Source: Microcoleaceae cyanobacterium (lineage in GTDB: Bacteria; Cyanobacteriota; Cyanobacteriia; Cyanobacteriales; Microcoleaceae). Taken from it: a DNA stretch of 64,000 bases. Of the stretch, positions 32,269 to 39,916 are shown piece by piece. Both the position numbers and the translations under genes were made by a program. The notes below the pieces were generated by a model. It was not told where the DNA came from and did no database searches. It worked only from the letters and a program-made list of their open reading frames with translations. Location: assembly GCA_051652765.1 (NCBI GenBank), contig JBOFUV010000074.1:1-64000 (forward strand), in the 5' to 3' direction. Positions within the stretch are counted from its first letter, which is position 1. Every line of letters starts with the position of its first letter.

Positions 32269-32600
32269 AACTCAATTTTTCAGTCAAAAACAAGTCTTAG
32301 GTCACGGGGTCAATGGTAAACGATCAAAGGCTATGAACGCAGGTATACCGAATAACTAACCTCAGCTACTATCGAGCCAAGTTCCCTGCCAATACGACCG
32401 AAAGCATCTCATCTTCCCATATCAAACCAAGTTGTAGCCCCAACTCGTATGACAAAACATTAACGATTGCGCCTGTACCTAATAAACCTTCGGCGTTAAG
32501 GAATTAATCATTCAGACTGAGCGTTCAAGGCAGATATGGCATTCGATCAACCATGCCAAGATTGCTGTCAATCATTCTGTAAGGAAACTTTTGAGCGTTA

Positions 32601-32686
32601 AGCGCCAGTTGAAGTCACCCGCCGCCAACAGCTTTGGAGTTAATCCAATAACATTGCGGTAGGTCGGGTGCAGTCACTCGTTATAC
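32601..32686 (-). other. attC site, family A (R' end degenerate)
   Basis: - strand reads GTATAAC-GAGTG-ACTGCACC...GGTGACT-TCAACT-GGCGCTT. The TAA stop of the upstream gene lies inside R''. 58/62 nt identical to 34766-34827. Confidence 0.8.
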
Positions 32687-33379
32687 CCTTATTGACTTAA
32701 TGGCTTCGATAAGGTCATTCTTCCTCATCTTACTTATGCCAGTGATCCCCATTTCTTTCGCCAAACTTTTAAGCTCAGCAACTGTCATTTTTATTAGATC
32801 ATCTATTGGTGGGGGATCAGGGGGGGGTGGAGGATCTTGGGGCGTTAAGTAAAATACATCTTTAACTGAGTCTAGCTTCTTACCTTTAGTAATTCCACAT
32901 TTCAGATTTATAATCGGCTCAAAATTCTTCCAGTATTGACGAGGTGCTTCATCAATCCGACTCGTAGCAACAGCAAGTTTGATGGTTTTTAAAGGACTGT
33001 TGGGTTGCTCAATTAAGAACTGCAAAGCTGAATTAATTTCTTCTCTTGAAGCTGTAGAAAGATTTAGTTTCGGAGTTTCCTCCCTTGCAAGTATCTTTGT
33101 AAGGGAAGTGGTATCTTCTGTATCATCTGCAATGATACACCAAACTCTTTCTAGTCCAGCTTGTTCGGCAACGGCATACCCAAATGAATTACCCACAACC
33201 TGATATTTGTCCTTTTCAAGGATTTTAACAATCACTGGCAGCCAGTTTCGTCCTCCCTTTTGCTGGAGTTGCTTGGCCGCAGCTTTAATCAAGAAATCTG
33301 GGGCATTTGTGCCATCTGTTATCTCTATCTCGTCTAAATAGAGGTACATCAGACTGCCAATACTACTTGAATCTTTCAT
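32681..33379 (-). CDS. ParB-N-like / HhH-like / Rho-termination-factor N-terminal domain protein (cassette gene 2)
   Basis: N-terminal NWLPVIVK..YQVVGN..AGLERVWCII is ParB/Srx-like. KLNLSTASREEI resembles an HhH start. A PPPPPDPPP linker precedes C-terminal MTVAELKSLAKEMGITGISKMRKNDLIEAI (Rho_N). Confidence 0.8.
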   Translation of the reverse strand: MKDSSSIGSLMYLYLDEIEITDGTNAPDFLIKAAAKQLQQKGGRNWLPVIVKILEKDKYQVVGNSFGYAVAEQAGLERVWCIIADDTEDTTSLTKILAREETPKLNLSTASREEINSALQFLIEQPNSPLKTIKLAVATSRIDEAPRQYWKNFEPIINLKCGITKGKKLDSVKDVFYLTPQDPPPPPDPPPIDDLIKMTVAELKSLAKEMGITGISKMRKNDLIEAIKSIRV

Positions 33380-34716
33380 TGTAGAAAATACTCCTTCGCT
33401 AAGCTTTTGTAGTATTCATTGGCAAAACGATCTCTATAAACAGCAGGTATGCGAGAAAAAGCTGCACTTGCTATACTAGCGCAACTTAGGAGTTTGTGAA
33501 TATCTAAGTCTTTCTTTGCAGGGGTGTACTTGGGGTAAAAATAGGGTAGCAGGTTAAAGCCTTCTTTCTTCGCATTCAAAATAAGGTTATTGATTGCTTT
33601 CTGAGCAGCTTCTAACTGCGGTGGGGTAATTTTCTCGCCGTTAAAGAAGATGGGCAAAGCCACTGGAGTTCCGTCTTCTTTATCTTTTTGCATTTGTGGA
33701 ATAAATTGTTTGATAGTAGTAGCAGCATTCTCTAAAGAGAATAAATTATTATGCTTTGTGGGAAGAAGTACAACATCTGCGGCATAAACTGCAAGCTGGC
33801 TAATAAAGCGCCAATTTGGGGATGAATCTATAAAAATGTAATCATATTCATGCCTTGCAAACTCAAGTTTTTCGTATAGAGAGTATAACTTCATTTGCGA
33901 CCGAAGTTCTTTTTCATCTAGAGCAGCCACCTCATCATCAGTAGGAATAATATCAAAGGTAATTTCAGTCTTTTTAATATGAAAACTATATAGGCGAACG
34001 AGTGATTTTAACTCAGGGTTTCTATCAGTCAGAGCCTTTTTAAGCTCTCCTTCACTCCTCTTCATTCCCAGGACGTTGGTTAAATCTTGTTGATTAAAGT
34101 CAAAATCTAAAGCCAGAACTTTTTTACCTAGAAAAGCCAGAATAGCGGCAAGATTGACAGTTGTAGTTGTTTTGCCAACTCCGCCTTTATTATTGTAAAT
34201 CGCTACTGTCAAAGCTCGGCTCGTATTTTCAATCTTACGCTTGATACTTTCCACAATCTCATCAACATTATCTGGAGTAAGAGATTTACAAGTAGTGGCA
34301 GGGAAAATGGTCTTGCCGTGTTTTCTAAATAGTTGAATACGAGAAGAGTTGGTGATGATTCCCCATTGGCATGATTGGCAGTTGTCTCCAAGTAGTTGTC
34401 TTTTTAATTGATTAACAGTTGCGATGTACTTTGGGCTACCTTCAGACAAGTTAACGTCTTTACCTTTTATTTCTAGGAGTAGAAAGGGATTATTTTTGGT
34501 ATGCAAAAAAATGTCGTCTTCAAAGTTCTTTCTGGCAGCAAAGTCAGGAATTTCTCTTGCCGCAGTATTAAACTCGGGAACAATTTCTTCAGGCGTGAAT
34601 CCTAAAGATCCTAGAAGTTTAGTTGCAAAATTCCTGACCATAGCTTCACTTGCATTTGGTGGCAAGCTTTGAAGCACTGAGCTAAGACTGGATGTTGTAG
34701 AACTCATAAATTGCAT
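33376..34716 (-). CDS. HsdR-N-like PD-(D/E)XK nuclease fused to ParA/Soj ATPase (cassette gene 1)
   Basis: N-terminal EIPDF...LLLEIKG...QLKRQL...WGIITN. C-terminal NNKGGVGKTT (deviant Walker A), ALDFDFNQQDLT and YDYIFIDSSP. ATGA overlap with the next gene. Confidence 0.85.
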   Translation of the reverse strand: MQFMSSTTSSLSSVLQSLPPNASEAMVRNFATKLLGSLGFTPEEIVPEFNTAAREIPDFAARKNFEDDIFLHTKNNPFLLLEIKGKDVNLSEGSPKYIATVNQLKRQLLGDNCQSCQWGIITNSSRIQLFRKHGKTIFPATTCKSLTPDNVDEIVESIKRKIENTSRALTVAIYNNKGGVGKTTTTVNLAAILAFLGKKVLALDFDFNQQDLTNVLGMKRSEGELKKALTDRNPELKSLVRLYSFHIKKTEITFDIIPTDDEVAALDEKELRSQMKLYSLYEKLEFARHEYDYIFIDSSPNWRFISQLAVYAADVVLLPTKHNNLFSLENAATTIKQFIPQMQKDKEDGTPVALPIFFNGEKITPPQLEAAQKAINNLILNAKKEGFNLLPYFYPKYTPAKKDLDIHKLLSCASIASAAFSRIPAVYRDRFANEYYKSLAKEYFLQ

Positions 34717-34756
34717 TTCTAGTACTTGCCAATACTATAATGTGCTGCTGTCTTGA

Positions 34757-34840
34757 GCGCAACGGTTGAAATCACCCGCTGCCAACAGCTTTGGAGTTAA
34801 TCCAATGACATTGCGGTAGGTTGGGTGTAATGATTTATAC
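34757..34840 (-). other. attC site, family A (R'' end eroded)
   Basis: - strand reads GTATAAATC-ATTACACC...GGTGATT-TCAACC-GTTGCGC. Near-identical to the 32601-32686 copy. Confidence 0.8.
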
Positions 34841-34966
34841 CTTGTTTAAGTATTGCCGACTTTCTCTCACTCAGCAAAACGACCACCGCAGATGATGCAA
34901 ACCCTCTCTCAACATAGTCAGTCGCCCTTCGGTTCAACTCCACAGGGAAGCTGTGGTGCGCTGGCA

Positions 34967-35063: not shown

Positions 35064-35564
35064 CTACTGCAATTCCCTAACTTGTCTGAGAGCTTCGTCA
35101 TAAACCCGCTGACTCAAACGAAATTTAGCCACAGTTTGCAAAGCATCAAGCTGTTCTTGCAAGTTAACAATCACTCCTTGACGTTTCGCCCAAATTAAGA
35201 GACCCAATGTACCAAGTATCGGTAAATTGATGCGTCGTGCAACTTGTCGCGCTTTCTTTTCATCGAGCAACAGAGCTTCTGAAGGCTGCTCAAGCAACAA
35301 TGCGATCGCCTCTGCTTCACCTTGATCCAGATCTTGTTGTAACACTGATATTAGAGTCTTGTTCTCCACTTCTTGCATGGACAGCCAAACGTTTAAGCCT
35401 GCTGCAACTTCTGCCGCTCCTGCCCGCCCTGCTCCAGTTTCCACAACTTCGTACCAGACTGCCTGTGGAATCACAATCCCGTCTGGAAATCGCCGCGTCA
35501 ATATAGACAATTGCCCAATACTGCTCAGGGCAATCAAAACAGACGAGTTGCTGATGGCTCTCAA
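35064..35564 (-). CDS. DUF3368 family PIN-domain toxin
   Basis: ISNSSVLIAL, IPQAVWYEV, LDQGEAEAIAL, LLLDEKKAR and GTLGLLIWAK. Confidence 0.9.
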   Translation of the reverse strand: MRAISNSSVLIALSSIGQLSILTRRFPDGIVIPQAVWYEVVETGAGRAGAAEVAAGLNVWLSMQEVENKTLISVLQQDLDQGEAEAIALLLEQPSEALLLDEKKARQVARRINLPILGTLGLLIWAKRQGVIVNLQEQLDALQTVAKFRLSQRVYDEALRQVRELQ

Positions 35565-35821
35565 TCTAATTGCTCCAACGTGTTTAGATCATTTTCTAGT
35601 TCCTCTAAGTCGTAACTACGCTCAATTGCCTCATCTCCTAGTAATGAGTGAAACTCCCATTTTGTCATTTGTGCTAACTCCCGTGCTTTGCCAAAAGAGA
35701 GCAAGCCTTTTTGATATAAACGAATTGCCAATTCCCGTTGCAGACGAGAGAGGCGTTCAGAAGGTGGAAGTTGAAGGGATTCTGCAACATTGTTTGAAAT
35801 CTCAAGTACTAGTCCACTCAT
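35561..35821 (-). CDS. UPF0175 family antitoxin
   Basis: LAIRLYQKGLLSFGKARELAQMTKWEF. Overlaps the PIN gene start. Confidence 0.9.
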   Translation of the reverse strand: MSGLVLEISNNVAESLQLPPSERLSRLQRELAIRLYQKGLLSFGKARELAQMTKWEFHSLLGDEAIERSYDLEELENDLNTLEQLD

Positions 35822-36162
35822 CCTATCCTCCTACTATTGCTAATCATGGTTTTAGGCAAATCACTACAATTTTGTCATAGGATCTTCTTTGGCTTGCGAC
35901 CGCACTGGAGGATTCACAAATCTCCTCTACTAAGCAAATTCTCCTTTGTAGTGAAGTTTTCGAGTGGTCAAGCTACTGCCAGCGGGACTAATCAATCAAA
36001 GAAGCACGATACATAAGGATCGAAAACCCATCCATAGATCGATCTTTGTGACTGCTCAGATCTCCTTGCCTCACCGCTTGTACTAAACATTGAACTCAGA
36101 ATTTGCCGTGCAGCTTCTGACCCCAGTGCTTAAAAAACTCCCTGTAAAAAAGAATTCCAGCT

Positions 36163-36351
36163 TTATTGAGCATTTGCAGAACCAGCATTAAGGTTTAGGA
36201 CAAGAGTGAAACACGCAATACCAGCAAATACTCTCTCTGTTTGCGCTTCATCCCTTGCTACTGAACCAAAGAGCATCAGAGACTTTACGCCAAAGTCCTT
36301 CAGCGTGTTCTGATGATTCGCCAATAATGTAAGGGCTTCCTGTTTTCGCAC
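36163..36351 (-). pseudogene. Truncated minimal nucleotidyltransferase (MNT) fused to an unrelated remnant
   Basis: LKDFGVKSLMLFGSVARDEAQT is an MNT N-terminus, but the SDID motif is missing and the sequence switches to a hydrophobic signal-peptide-like stretch. Confidence 0.75.
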
Positions 36352-36538: not shown

Positions 36539-36931
36539 CTAAGGAATATAAACCCGACCAACACCCATGTAATTGTCAATGTCAAAAAGAATCTCAACTA
36601 ACCGACTGGCGCATCGTTCACGATAACTCTGCTCGTCAAGCCGCTCTTTGTTGCCGATCGTCACAACGGGAAGTGATGTCAGCGTATTGTCTTCCCGAAT
36701 CGCTTGCTCCAACGAATCATCTCCCTTCATGTTCCGATTTGCGGTCAAGATAATCATCTGATTGCCCTGAGCTACCTGCCAAACTAAAAGATCGCTGCTG
36801 TTTTCGAGTAAGCCGACCTCTTCAAACCCAACGAATCGAATCGGCATCAGTTCAAGCCATCCTTCAGCCGCGATCGTGCCCCAAAGTAAAGCTGCCTGTC
36901 CTCGCAAATTGTAGTCAATCAGAAAATTCAT
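36539..36931 (-). CDS. DUF5615-like PIN-domain toxin
   Basis: MNFLIDYNL, VGLLENSSDLLVW and IILTANR. ATGA overlap with the DUF433 gene. Confidence 0.8.
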   Translation of the reverse strand: MNFLIDYNLRGQAALLWGTIAAEGWLELMPIRFVGFEEVGLLENSSDLLVWQVAQGNQMIILTANRNMKGDDSLEQAIREDNTLTSLPVVTIGNKERLDEQSYRERCASRLVEILFDIDNYMGVGRVYIP

Positions 36932-37311
36932 ACCTTGGACTCAAGCCTGTCTTTCCAAGCCTGAAGTTTAGCACGGATAGCCTCTTGACTCGGTTTTGGA
37001 GATGTTGCAACAAGACGGGCAAAGTGTTCTCGATTGCGTTCTTCCCAATATTGCCGATTCTCTTCCGCAGTTTGTAAAACTTGTTGATATTCAGACTCGA
37101 CTTCAGCTTGATGAGCTTTGATGTAAAACAGAGCCGCATCGATCTGAGCATCTGTGAGACAGAGCTTTTCGCGAATGAGCTTTGCAGGATAGCCAGCCGT
37201 GTAGTAATCCATCACGTCATAAAGCGTAATGCGGGTTCCTGCGATCGTGATCCCACGCTCTGTCCGAATAATTTCCGATTGATCACTAGATGCCGAACTC
37301 ATTTTCCACAT
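36928..37311 (-). CDS. DUF433 antitoxin-like protein
   Basis: ITIAGTRITLYDVMDY...LTDAQIDAALFY. Start may be the ATG at 37302. Confidence 0.88.
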   Translation of the reverse strand: MWKMSSASSDQSEIIRTERGITIAGTRITLYDVMDYYTAGYPAKLIREKLCLTDAQIDAALFYIKAHQAEVESEYQQVLQTAEENRQYWEERNREHFARLVATSPKPSQEAIRAKLQAWKDRLESKV

Positions 37312-37377: not shown

Positions 37378-37779
37378 CTAGAAGGGGCTAAGCCAAAACC
37401 CTAGGTGGCCAAGATCGGAGACTAAGGTTACTAATGTGTAAACAATGAATAAAAGAGCGCCTAAAAACCATAGTAGAAATGTAAAAAGATTTCCTCCTTT
37501 AGTCCCCACATAAATTAAACGAGAAATACCCATGAACTCAATTATCAAAAACCGCCAGAGGTTTGCAGTAGCCTGCTCAGTAACAAATTGAATCTTTGGA
37601 GCAAATGTTGCAATTGCATTTTTCAAGTCTTGTATATTACCCATCATTGATTTACCTTTTTTGGGCAGGCCAACTCTTAATGGCTCCTGATTTGCCTGGA
37701 TTTCTGCCTTCCAGTCAAACTTCAACGGCTGAGTCCAAAATCCCTCGTAAACGTAACCTTATCCACAGATTCTAAGGAA
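37378..37779 (-). pseudogene. 5'-truncated membrane-protein gene remnant
   Basis: Frame continues upstream of the TTG (GYVYEGFWTQP, one TAA) to the broken attC. No ATG or RBS. C-terminal TM helix. Confidence 0.5.
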
Positions 37780-37845
37780 GCCGCCAACAGCTTCAGAATT
37801 AATCCAGTACTGCTATTGCAGGTCGGGTGCAGTGATTTGTTAGCT
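37780..37845 (-). other. Truncated attC, family A (L' and R' lost)
   Basis: - strand AGCTAAC-AAATC-ACTGCACC-CGACC...GGATTAATTCTGAAGCTGTTGGCGG, then similarity to the other family A copies stops abruptly. Confidence 0.78.
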
Positions 37846-37932
37846 TGACTTGGGCGAGCTGACTGTCTCTTAACTCAGCCCTGAATACTGACACACACGT
37901 TTCCGGTTGCGTCATCACCGATAGCTCAGGCG

Positions 37933-38017
37933 GCATAACGGCAAAAGTGAGCGGCGACAGACAATATCGAAACAAAGCACAAAGACTCTGCACGTCCGCT
38001 CCACTGCGTTGTTATGC
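37933..38017 (-). other. attC site, family B (intact), end of first cassette
   Basis: - strand: R'' GCATAAC, 5-bp spacer, L'' AGTGGAGC (extra G), L' GCTCACT, 6-bp spacer, R' GTTATGC. Terminal complementarity extends to 10 bp. Confidence 0.92.
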
Positions 38018-38365
38018 CGCGCAATCTGCTGTACATCAACAATACTTCGGACAGAATTAGACAGCAATAATGCTGTAAACGCTGGACTTTGTGTTGAATT
38101 TAATCGAAGTGGGTGATAGGGCGCTGAAAAATGAGCACGAGATTGTTCGCTTCTCTGTCTAATGGCTCATGTGAAAATTGTTCAAACTTTTGTACGATAA
38201 TAACACAACCGTAGCTTTTCATAATGATGTTTCCTTAGCTCCATCTACAAAGCTAGTTTGGTTTTGAGAAGCGTCAGTCGTTCGGTGCTGACCCTACAAC
38301 CTTTTGTTCAGCAGGTGAAACGCGGTTCAGATTTAAGGCAAAAATTCTTTTCCTAAAGGAGAACG

Positions 38366-38818
38366 GTGATGTTAGATATCGATGAAATGAGTTCAAAGGA
38401 AATACAAGAGCTTTTGAAAAAAGTGGGACACGGGCACCTTGGCTGTATCTTCAAAGAGCATCCCTACGTTGTGCCAATGCACTACTATCTCGAAGGCTCA
38501 GACATTTACCTTGTCACCACTGAAGGCATGAAGACGCAAGCGATGGACGCAAATCCAGAAATTTGCCTCCAGATTGAAGAAGTGCATGACCCAGCACACT
38601 GGCGGAGTGTGGTAGTGACAGGTCGAGTCGAGCGCATCACTACGCAGCCAGACCTCGATCGAGCTATGCACTTTATCAAAGAACGGAATCCAACGCTTTC
38701 GCCTGCAATTAATCGCACCTGGGTCGATAGTTGGGGACGCGCTGCGGTGATTGCCATCTTCCGCATTCATTCCAGCGAGATGAGTGGACGGACAACCACT
38801 GGAGTGAGTAGCAAGTAA
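38366..38818 (+). CDS. Pyridoxamine 5'-phosphate oxidase-like (FMN-binding split barrel) protein
   Basis: GHLGC, PYVVPMHY, TTEGMK, NPEICLQIEE and WRSVVVTG. RBS AAGGAG. Confidence 0.88.
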   Translation: MMLDIDEMSSKEIQELLKKVGHGHLGCIFKEHPYVVPMHYYLEGSDIYLVTTEGMKTQAMDANPEICLQIEEVHDPAHWRSVVVTGRVERITTQPDLDRAMHFIKERNPTLSPAINRTWVDSWGRAAVIAIFRIHSSEMSGRTTTGVSSK

Positions 38819-38821
38819 GCA

Positions 38822-39193
38822 TTGATTGCTGCAGTCTCAGTTCTGACCTATTTAAGGAATTCAACGAGCATGGTGGGCAACTTACTGCAATGTGAGTATC
38901 TTGGTTGGGGGAAATTAGAGTCGTTTCGATCGAGGTCTTTATCCGAGAATGAGACATTGATTTTCACGGAGATTGCAGGAACCGCTCCGGTATTAATTCG
39001 AGGATTTCTTGATTGTCTGCGCTCTCCAGAGCTCCACGCAAAAACTCCTCAGCAATTTTCAGAAAGTAATATGGCAGAATTCATGGTGGAAATGGTCAGA
39101 ACGCTCCCGGAAAGCCTGTTGCAGGAGTGGGCAAACCAGTCCAACACCGATCAAAATATGGTTTGTGCGATCCTACGTTGGTCAGTAAACTAA
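38822..39193 (+). CDS. Hypothetical protein (first cassette)
   Basis: 123-aa ORF 3 bp after the PNPOx-like gene. Start may be the ATG at 38870. Confidence 0.6.
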   Translation: MIAAVSVLTYLRNSTSMVGNLLQCEYLGWGKLESFRSRSLSENETLIFTEIAGTAPVLIRGFLDCLRSPELHAKTPQQFSESNMAEFMVEMVRTLPESLLQEWANQSNTDQNMVCAILRWSVN

Positions 39194-39321: not shown

Positions 39322-39331
39322 GCGGCATAAC
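39322..39331 (-). other. Probable attI crossover core (G/TTATGC on - strand)
   Basis: GCGGCATAAC (+) is the exact complement of the R'' arm at 38011-38020, as expected for an integrated cassette. No attC hairpin lies to its right. About 230 bp upstream of intI. Confidence 0.75.
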
Positions 39332-39342
39332 TATTACTATAT

Positions 39343-39556
39343 TGAAATTTTCTGCATAACCAACGCTTTTGGGATGATTACCCTGAAACTTTCCATATAA
39401 TCCACCCTAATACTGCAACTACACTGAAACTTTCTGGGTATACATCCTAAATTTGAGGATTATCCCAAAACTTTCCGTATATTCTCCGATGAAACACAGC
39501 AATGTTCGGCCTAGCATCGATTTATTCGGAGCGTTACCTTGAAATTTTCTGTATAA
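39343..39556 (+). repeat. Phased direct repeats TGAAA(C/T)TTTC(T/C)..ATA between attI and intI
   Basis: Copies start at 39343, 39384, 39425 and 39466 (41-bp period), with a fifth at 39540. Confidence 0.75.
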
Positions 39557-39563
39557 ACCCCAA

Positions 39564-39916
39564 ATGGAACAACGCCCGAAAAAGCTGTTGGATCAGGTGC
39601 GTGATCTGATTCGGCTCAAACATTATTCCTATCAAACTGAAAAAACCTATGTGGGATGGATTAGGCGCTACATATTGTTTCATCAAATCCGCCATCCTCA
39701 AGAAATGGGGTCTGCTGAAATTGAGACTTTTCTGACTCATTTAGCAGTTGAGGAGAAGTAGCCGCTTCCACTCAGAATCAGGCGTTCAGTGCTCTCCTGT
39801 TTCTCTATCGGGAGGTGTTGCGGCAGGAGTTGGATTTGCCGATTGATTCCATTCGAGCCAAACGCCCGCATTACTTGCCAACCGTATTGACCAAACCAGA
39901 GGTGTTGGCCATTTAG
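39564..39916 (+). pseudogene. intI: Integron integrase, frameshifted and C-terminally truncated
   Basis: [56 protein letters not shown]. After a -1 shift near 39758 it continues [41 protein letters not shown]. Catalytic domain absent. Confidence 0.93.

Follow-up and report, generated by a model that had tools for sequence, protein, structure and literature searches.

Two coupled genes on the reverse strand of a 64,000-nucleotide stretch of Microcoleaceae cyanobacterium DNA (assembly GCA_051652765.1, contig JBOFUV010000074.1; the whole stretch is called the window here) encode a PD-(D/E)XK nuclease fused to a ParA/Soj ATPase (gene 1) and a ParB-like partner with HhH and Rho_N domains (gene 2). 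The pair is a real, undescribed variant assembled from known parts, and it is a widespread cyanobacterial module which is occasionally captured by integrons. Regarding its role, we see about an even chance that it serves in genetic conflict as a mobile, self-contained unit with wiring like that of a toxin-antitoxin (TA) pair, i.e. a guarded, ATP-gated nuclease which would be addictive and plausibly defensive. Gene 1 occurs in over a quarter of the sampled genomes of a major cyanobacterial order, bloom-forming Microcystis included, and current annotation of the pair reads merely 'AAA ATPase' and 'Rho termination factor'. The pair was not described in the literature searched or in PADLOC; large tables of predicted defence systems, in supplements or in subscription journals, may already contain the family. 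In the accessible parts of a 2026 review (PMC13434031) and of a Vibrio integron preprint (10.1101/2024.07.02.601686), ParA and ParB had zero occurrences. The two genes and their domains lie in the window as follows.

33376..34716 (-): gene 1, PD-(D/E)XK nuclease and ParA/Soj ATPase fusion, 446 aa; one database call begins at Met4
34222..34698 (-): nuclease domain of gene 1 (residues 7-165), with E24, D58, E82-x-K84, Q103 and N123
33379..34221 (-): ParA domain of gene 1 (residues 166-446), with KGGVGKTT, D204/D206 and Walker B D297
32681..33379 (-): gene 2, ParB-like/HhH/Rho_N partner, 232 aa
33071..33367 (-): arginine-less ParB-N domain of gene 2 (residues 5-103), GNSF replacing the canonical GERR
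32840..33073 (-): ComEA-like HhH domain of gene 2 (residues 103-180), DNA-binding type, by a middling fold match
32696..32800 (-): Rho_N/SAP-type tail of gene 2 (residues 194-228), by profile and fold; missing in one plasmid subfamily

The nuclease-ParA fusion and its ParB-like partner

Profile searches matched gene 1 to AAA_31 (E 2.5e-31) and, below the cut-off, to HSDR_N_2 (E 0.0016), and gene 2 to Rho_N (E 1.7e-12) and, again below the cut-off, to ParB_N (E 0.011). The two weak matches are supported because the predicted folds agree with them. Both predicted models were confident (pLDDT 88.9 for gene 1 and 95.4 for gene 2). Residues 7-165 of gene 1 fold like the type IIG restriction endonuclease (REase) BpuSI (Z 12.8, root-mean-square deviation (rmsd) 3.1, 143 residues aligned), and the ParA part matched PDB entry 8RAY with a Z of 28.4; a Foldseek search with gene 1 gave exclusively ParA-family rows among the matches listed. 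An earlier note on this DNA, made by reading the letters, had proposed an HsdR-N-like PD-(D/E)XK set on a complete ParA, which these folds bear out. It had also allowed for homologues lacking the nuclease residues. Among 68 full-length homologues the catalytic set was near-invariant, D58 being kept in 67 and E82, K84, Q103 and N123 in all, as were the ParA Walker residues K177, K182, D204, D206 and D297 (68/68). Copies selected via gene 1, nine of which are common to the set of 68, kept D58 and K84 in 71 of 73 cases, and the E..D..ExK..N pattern was retained in the plasmid subfamily at about 29% identity. In what we take to be an E..PD..ExK..QxxxY-type motif, the Tyr position is a Gln in this gene 1 and likewise in 11 of the 68 homologues. 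As read from its residues, gene 1 has the complete predicted active site of a restriction-type nuclease, joined to a ParA switch that is itself intact. ESM Atlas searches with gene 1 matched a Spirochaetota cluster with a score of 0.98 and, as leads, clusters of Mrr_cat-ParA fusions at 0.82-0.83, which suggests that nuclease-ParA fusions may exist outside cyanobacteria.

For gene 2, residues 5-103 adopt the ParB-N fold, with PadC (Z 11.3, rmsd 2.6, 94 aligned) and KorB (Z 10.5) as matches. It has GNSF where canonical ParB has GxRR (GERR in the plasmid ParB used for comparison), with N64 and F66 present in 80/80 homologues; N45, W46, P48, N64 and W80 are near-invariant, and a basic motif is absent from the N-terminal consensus. 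The earlier description of a ParB-like N-domain without the arginine patch is upheld by the PadC fold match and by the GNSF-type motif throughout the homologues. Further parts of that description fared unevenly: the Rho_N domain was recovered by its profile match, the short HhH-like segment gave way to a ComEA-type HhH domain of about 80 residues (Z 6.1-6.2, middling; rmsd 2.1-2.5; 61 aligned), and the polyproline linker is present but private to this copy, not being kept in homologues. Prediction of a complex between both proteins scored 0.45 against 0.00 for the best control, which is weak support. Of 157 solved pairs 116 attained the mark, as did 2 of 215 mismatched ones, and the range at or under 0.60 held 18 of these solved pairs and both mismatches. 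The runs agreed in at least 84% of contacts with a partner pLDDT of at least 85, and the score may echo solved ParA-ParB complexes.

Occurrence, decay and mobility of the pair

Relatives of gene 2 numbered 961 at 90% clustering. Gene 1 lay directly upstream in 77 of 80 gene-2 genome loci, the remainder being two contig ends and one replacement by an insertion sequence (IS). Within the order, gene 1 was matched in 84 of 301 genomes, with 8 of 16 in one genus, and gene 2 was matched in 12 of 30 relatives. No third gene was common to the loci, 430 of 508 neighbour clusters being singletons, and the 104 distinct genes immediately adjoining the pair, like the 30 scanned out of 58 lying further off, belonged mostly to housekeeping, TA and IS types. 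This clustering across loci confirmed the earlier statement that a methyltransferase partner is missing: no conserved third gene could serve as a cognate methyltransferase or specificity unit, and a restriction-modification (RM) enzyme was adjacent in one genus only. In that genus (L153, L155, L156 and L172), the neighbour of the pair is an RM enzyme of the BsuBI/PstI-Eco57I type, from which a ParE TA pair sometimes separates it. A FastTree phylogeny, with taxonomy as given by the submitters, indicated inheritance inside genera and mixing between genera.

The two genes do not decay alike. Among the 80 loci selected via gene 2, 68 had a whole gene 1, seven a broken or replaced one, and five were cut by contig ends. 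The 90 loci selected via gene 1 comprised 71 in which both genes have full length (one of these is nuclease-dead and another has a stop shortly after the start), three with gene 1 broken and gene 2 intact, five with both broken, one lone gene 1, and ten at contig ends or ambiguous. Thus, gene 1 was broken with gene 2 intact in 7/75 loci and gene 2 was broken beside a full gene 1 in 0/71 (Fisher p 0.014; 0.063 when counting the lone gene 1, L207; length-adjusted P0 0.029). The lone gene 1 carries the nuclease-site changes D to H and K to R. The pattern fits what would be expected if gene 1 were harmful without gene 2, with modest statistics.

Gene 2 relatives were also present on eight plasmid records. 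All seven examined have a long ParA gene upstream, and five of the seven also encode ParM or a ParA-type protein separately, either close by or at another place on the plasmid. Pair-bearing plasmids range from 13 to 226 kb, and one Nostoc strain holds three divergent pairs on three plasmids (L104, L105, L107). In a genome of the same genus as ours (G002), the copy is 63% identical though GyrB is 93% identical; the closest copy among the genome loci (72%) is in genome G417 with a GyrB identity of 79%. By these identities the pair is apparently xenologous within the genus. The G002 copy begins about 60 nt behind an attI-type region (88% identical), with no intI and no attC detected there; integron-type sites seem to have caught the module twice in this genus. 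Patchy spread, plasmids and capture by integron-type sites taken together, the module is therefore mobile.

In the window, the pair occupies an integron cassette, and the features around it are the following.

32600..32686 (-): attC-type site on the downstream side, missing R' GTT
34757..34843 (-): attC-type site on the upstream side, missing R'' AAC
35064..35821 (-): UPF0175 + DUF3368 neighbouring pair, domain matches
36539..37311 (-): DUF433 + DUF5615-like neighbouring pair, DUF5615 match below the cut-off
37770..37845 (-): truncated attC-type site, a family member of the two that flank the cassette
37930..38020 (-): well-formed attC of a different family (hairpin z -3.74, 0/200 shuffles as good)
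39322..39563 (-): attI/promoter-type region; putative crossover GTT at 39329-39331, proposed from sequence
39564..39916 (+): integron integrase (intI) remnant (TIGR02249, E 1.8e-18), running divergently from the array, truncated and with a frameshift near 39755

Two intact, translationally coupled open reading frames between near-identical attC repeats had been described earlier, and the coordinates, the ATGA overlap at 33376-33379 and the repeats (63 nt, 94% identity) were all found. The frames span the attC-to-attC interval, in an array downstream of attI with a divergent intI. The repeats belong to a genome-wide attC-type family with 23 matches on 15 contigs. Compared with intact family copies, each flanking site lacks one core triplet, the upstream one R'' AAC and the downstream one R' GTT, and both fold weakly (z -1.0 to -1.8). 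Recombination-competent attC sites and an integrase were not found at the locus, where core triplets are missing and the local intI is frameshifted and truncated. With its flanking sites damaged and poorly folding, the cassette is therefore probably immobile now. A promoter and terminator scan gave nothing above chance level.

The earlier view of the cassette as AT-rich holds (39.0% GC vs 46.1%; only 62 of 2352 genome windows are equally low). The absence of HIP1 sites, mentioned along with it, was rejected as a sign of foreign origin, being at chance level (1.3 expected, P0 0.26; 576 of the 2352 genome windows lack HIP1). Intactness amid a decayed array, read before as a hint of selection, is not peculiar to this cassette, since two TA-type pairs in the array look intact too. 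These are the UPF0175 + DUF3368 and DUF433 + DUF5615-like neighbours, which we take to be TA-type pairs. A decayed remnant at 36000-36351 (-) presumably resembles a small nucleotidyltransferase TA gene, and the genes right after attI (38366-39193, (+); pyridoxamine-oxidase-like plus hypothetical) are oriented against the array direction. Integron debris is found genome-wide, with 17 intI 5' fragments, 49 attI/promoter-region matches and 23 attC-type matches (15-22 contigs), which suggests that the attI-promoter segment itself may have spread like a small mobile element. Elsewhere in this genome (G000:C37:487-2560, (+)), a second, unrelated ParA-like ATPase (KGGVSKTT) is overlapped by a gene of about 250 aa with an RxxxxH motif, presumably HEPN-type, so that it looks like an ATPase-HEPN defence or TA pair.

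Possible roles of the pair

ParA proteins dimerise upon ATP binding. In the guarded-nuclease reading, this dimerisation would unite two nuclease heads on DNA, while gene 2 would sit non-specifically on the nucleoid, bind the ParA fusion and hold the nuclease off. If the guard were lost, diluted or displaced, by element loss or infection, the nuclease would cut DNA, and the unit would thereby be addictive and plausibly protect against phage or plasmids through abortive defence. Here, the module would have been captured as an integron cassette and then immobilised. TA-like wiring is proposed because gene 1 breaks while gene 2 stays and because the lone gene 1 is nuclease-dead. The unusual TA module considered in the earlier note is thus backed in its wiring by the decay asymmetry (7/75 vs 0/71), with the reservation of modest statistics.

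Several observations weigh against this reading. The decay samples are small and kin-related, nine loci stand in both sets, some frameshifts may be assembly errors, and best-match selection favours intact genes; one copy in which the two genes are whole (L154) is nuclease-dead. Sequence conservation is high for a defence gene, and within genera the pair is in many cases passed on at one constant position, being monophyletic in Microcystis and in Microcoleus; shared flanks occur as well. A defence-island signal was not seen in the 130, 104 and 30 neighbours scanned without a control set. For PADLOC at 1e-10, 10 of 130 neighbours matched, all through generic domains (kinase, AAA, NifS, Uma2, HNH, TPR); the 130 comprise 98 second neighbours and, picked mainly for having no Pfam match, 32 first neighbours out of 104. 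A general link to defence islands is not supported, which speaks against island-type defence. A general link to integrons is not supported either. The attC covariance model R1 (8 base pairs, trained on the repeats of this genome and one Microcystis site) sees only this attC family, so its counts in homologous loci are lower bounds: among 80 loci it found one weak half-site adjoining the pair and two more sites 0.5-0.7 kb off, and no significant match in 40 further loci. With the attC context this rare, an integron-specific system was rejected.

An unlikely alternative is cooperative restriction, in which gene 2 would be a loader or sensor marking incoming or small DNA and recruiting the ParA-nuclease, and the cell would survive, much as when Wadjet or DdmDE-type systems clear plasmids. 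Proteins of the ParB family normally recruit ParA and stimulate it, and this role agrees with the obligate pairing, the DNA-binding-type domains of gene 2, the conserved nuclease and ATPase, and the weak complex support. Such a system predicts symmetric decay, but gene 1 breaks first; plasmids of 13-226 kb themselves bear the pair, three of them in one strain, and a self/non-self mark is not evident. Accessory nucleoid housekeeping, in which ParA gradients would deliver the nuclease so that polyploid cyanobacteria can repair, clear or position their chromosome copies, appears unlikely to us. It would account for a pair that is mostly single-copy, chromosomal, set among housekeeping genes, strongly conserved and vertical inside genera, and for a genome without ParB_N match or parS. 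It is harder to reconcile with 217 of 301 genomes of the order in which the pair was not found, half of one genus included, and with dozens of unrelated insertion sites, plasmid and integron-type sites, xenology within the genus and repeated pseudogenisation. The reading as a plain ParA/ParB partition module whose nuclease domain is a mere passenger has the ParA and ParB folds in parAB order on its side, and is nevertheless largely refuted and hardly credible, given a gene 2 without GxRR CTP box, helix-turn-helix (HTH) and basic N-terminal ParA-activating peptide, a genome without parS consensus, plasmids holding separate partition genes, and a strongly constrained nuclease site.

Relatives of gene 2 of another kind came from a library-wide search, namely 22 lysine-rich phage-type proteins that share its arginine-less ParB domain, in many cases repeated in tandem (31 domains altogether; 24-41 identical residues over 65-96). 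They keep P48 and N64 in 22/22 and N45 and W46 in 19/22. One is fused to a Mu portal, and several of the 22 share an N-terminal domain with cargo proteins beside phage terminase or head genes; genomic context was seen for a minority of them. On the metagenome contig L132 (4213-18147), polyvalent proteins adjoin the terminase and have an N-terminal domain in common with P0213/P0220. A Mu-like prophage (L234, G466:C99:26000-45999) carries, inside its head-gene cluster, five cargo proteins that have their N-terminal domain in common and exchangeable domains at the C-terminus (DarB-like, ParB-like, unknown). The DarB-like module, of the anti-restriction kind, sits in one of these proteins, and a second carries an arginine-less ParB domain at greater distance (E 7.9e-7; hhalign 80%). 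Searching 401 cyanobacterial genomes with P0179 gave top matches including gene 2 of this genome (G000), G005 and G007, and the other matches listed fall in frames of similar length; a close full-length prophage copy with the domain was not found in the 401 genomes with P0179, P0217 or P0216. IMG/VR (searched with alignment A1, P0179 and P0167) and GenBank phages yielded no gene 2 relative, at a reach of close relatives only. In the domain tree, midpoint rooting nests phage in host and a single long outgroup nests host in phage. Going by these sequences, the phage ParB-type domains are possibly a decoy, a trigger or mere shared ancestry. Because the phage-type proteins keep gene 2 residues and some of them are linked to the head cargo of cyanophages, one can envisage an anti-phage tripwire in which the ParB-like guard restrains the ATP-gated ParA-nuclease and cyanophages package and inject tandem arginine-less ParB decoys that hold the nuclease off, or the nuclease senses them; we judge this version improbable.

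If the guarded-nuclease reading is right, ParA/ParB partition machinery would have been turned into a guarded nuclease, and a ParA-type switch would be added to the gating mechanisms known for immune or addiction nucleases. It would also show a role of a ParB domain without CTP and supply a host-phage pair for the study of molecular mimicry.

Comparison with known systems

With type I ParABS systems (Soj/ParA and Spo0J/ParB), the pair shares the deviant Walker-A ParA fold, the ParB-N fold, the parA-parB order and the coupling. It differs in that its ParA bears a nuclease head and that, in gene 2, HhH and Rho_N domains stand in place of the missing arginine box, HTH and activating peptide; it is also without parS and on plasmids adjoins real partition loci. 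This genome gave no match to the parS consensus used, the search covering consensus sites only, and the 99.97% complete assembly has neither a ParB_N match nor a parS consensus. The earlier conclusion that this is not a partition system stands, with no parS consensus, variable neighbours and carrier plasmids that have partition genes of their own. The best fold matches of the gene 2 N-domain belong to the group of PadC, KorB, Noc and orphan ParB-fold proteins, which, unlike gene 2, keep the nucleotide-binding arginines. Reuse of the ParB fold outside segregation has been described, with no mention of a nuclease-ParA partner in the part of the source consulted (10.1101/2025.10.10.680097).

HsdR-N and type IIG REases (BpuSI) are alike in nuclease fold and E..PD..ExK..QxxxY-type motif set, and differ in that the pair has no methyltransferase, specificity subunit or helicase motor and its nuclease is fused to ParA; a classical RM system was rejected, as a cognate methyltransferase or specificity unit is absent. 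TA cassettes stabilise integrons, and about 10% of the cassettes in one Vibrio integron are anti-phage, according to the accessible part of that preprint (10.1101/2024.07.02.601686). Type II TA integron cassettes resemble the pair in having coupled genes in one cassette, in survival within a decayed array and in toxin-first decay, gene 1 being the putative toxin; in the pair, the enzyme gene comes first and is large, and the partner is a ParB-fold protein of DNA-binding type and no small repressor.

PARIS, Septu, Gabija and Lamassu are anti-phage systems made of an ATPase and a nuclease. The pair has in common with them a presumably NTPase-controlled nuclease and a compact mobile operon, whereas its ATPase is of the ParA family, not ABC/SMC, and no defence-island clustering was seen among the neighbours scanned. 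A possible identity with a named defence system, raised in the earlier note, found no counterpart in PADLOC, which has no system model for the pair: PADLOC-DB 2.0.0 gave only Walker-A matches of 48-57 residues to PDC-M28B for gene 1 and none for gene 2. Finally, phage polyvalent proteins with DdrB-like ParB, as far as the accessible part of the source describes them (PMC5512222), are similar in that ParB-fold domains occur in head-associated multidomain proteins. According to the same part, the DdrB-ParB domains keep the active-site arginine and have no ParA link (PMC5512222), in contrast to the 22 phage-type proteins, which are arginine-less and match the partner of a host ParA.

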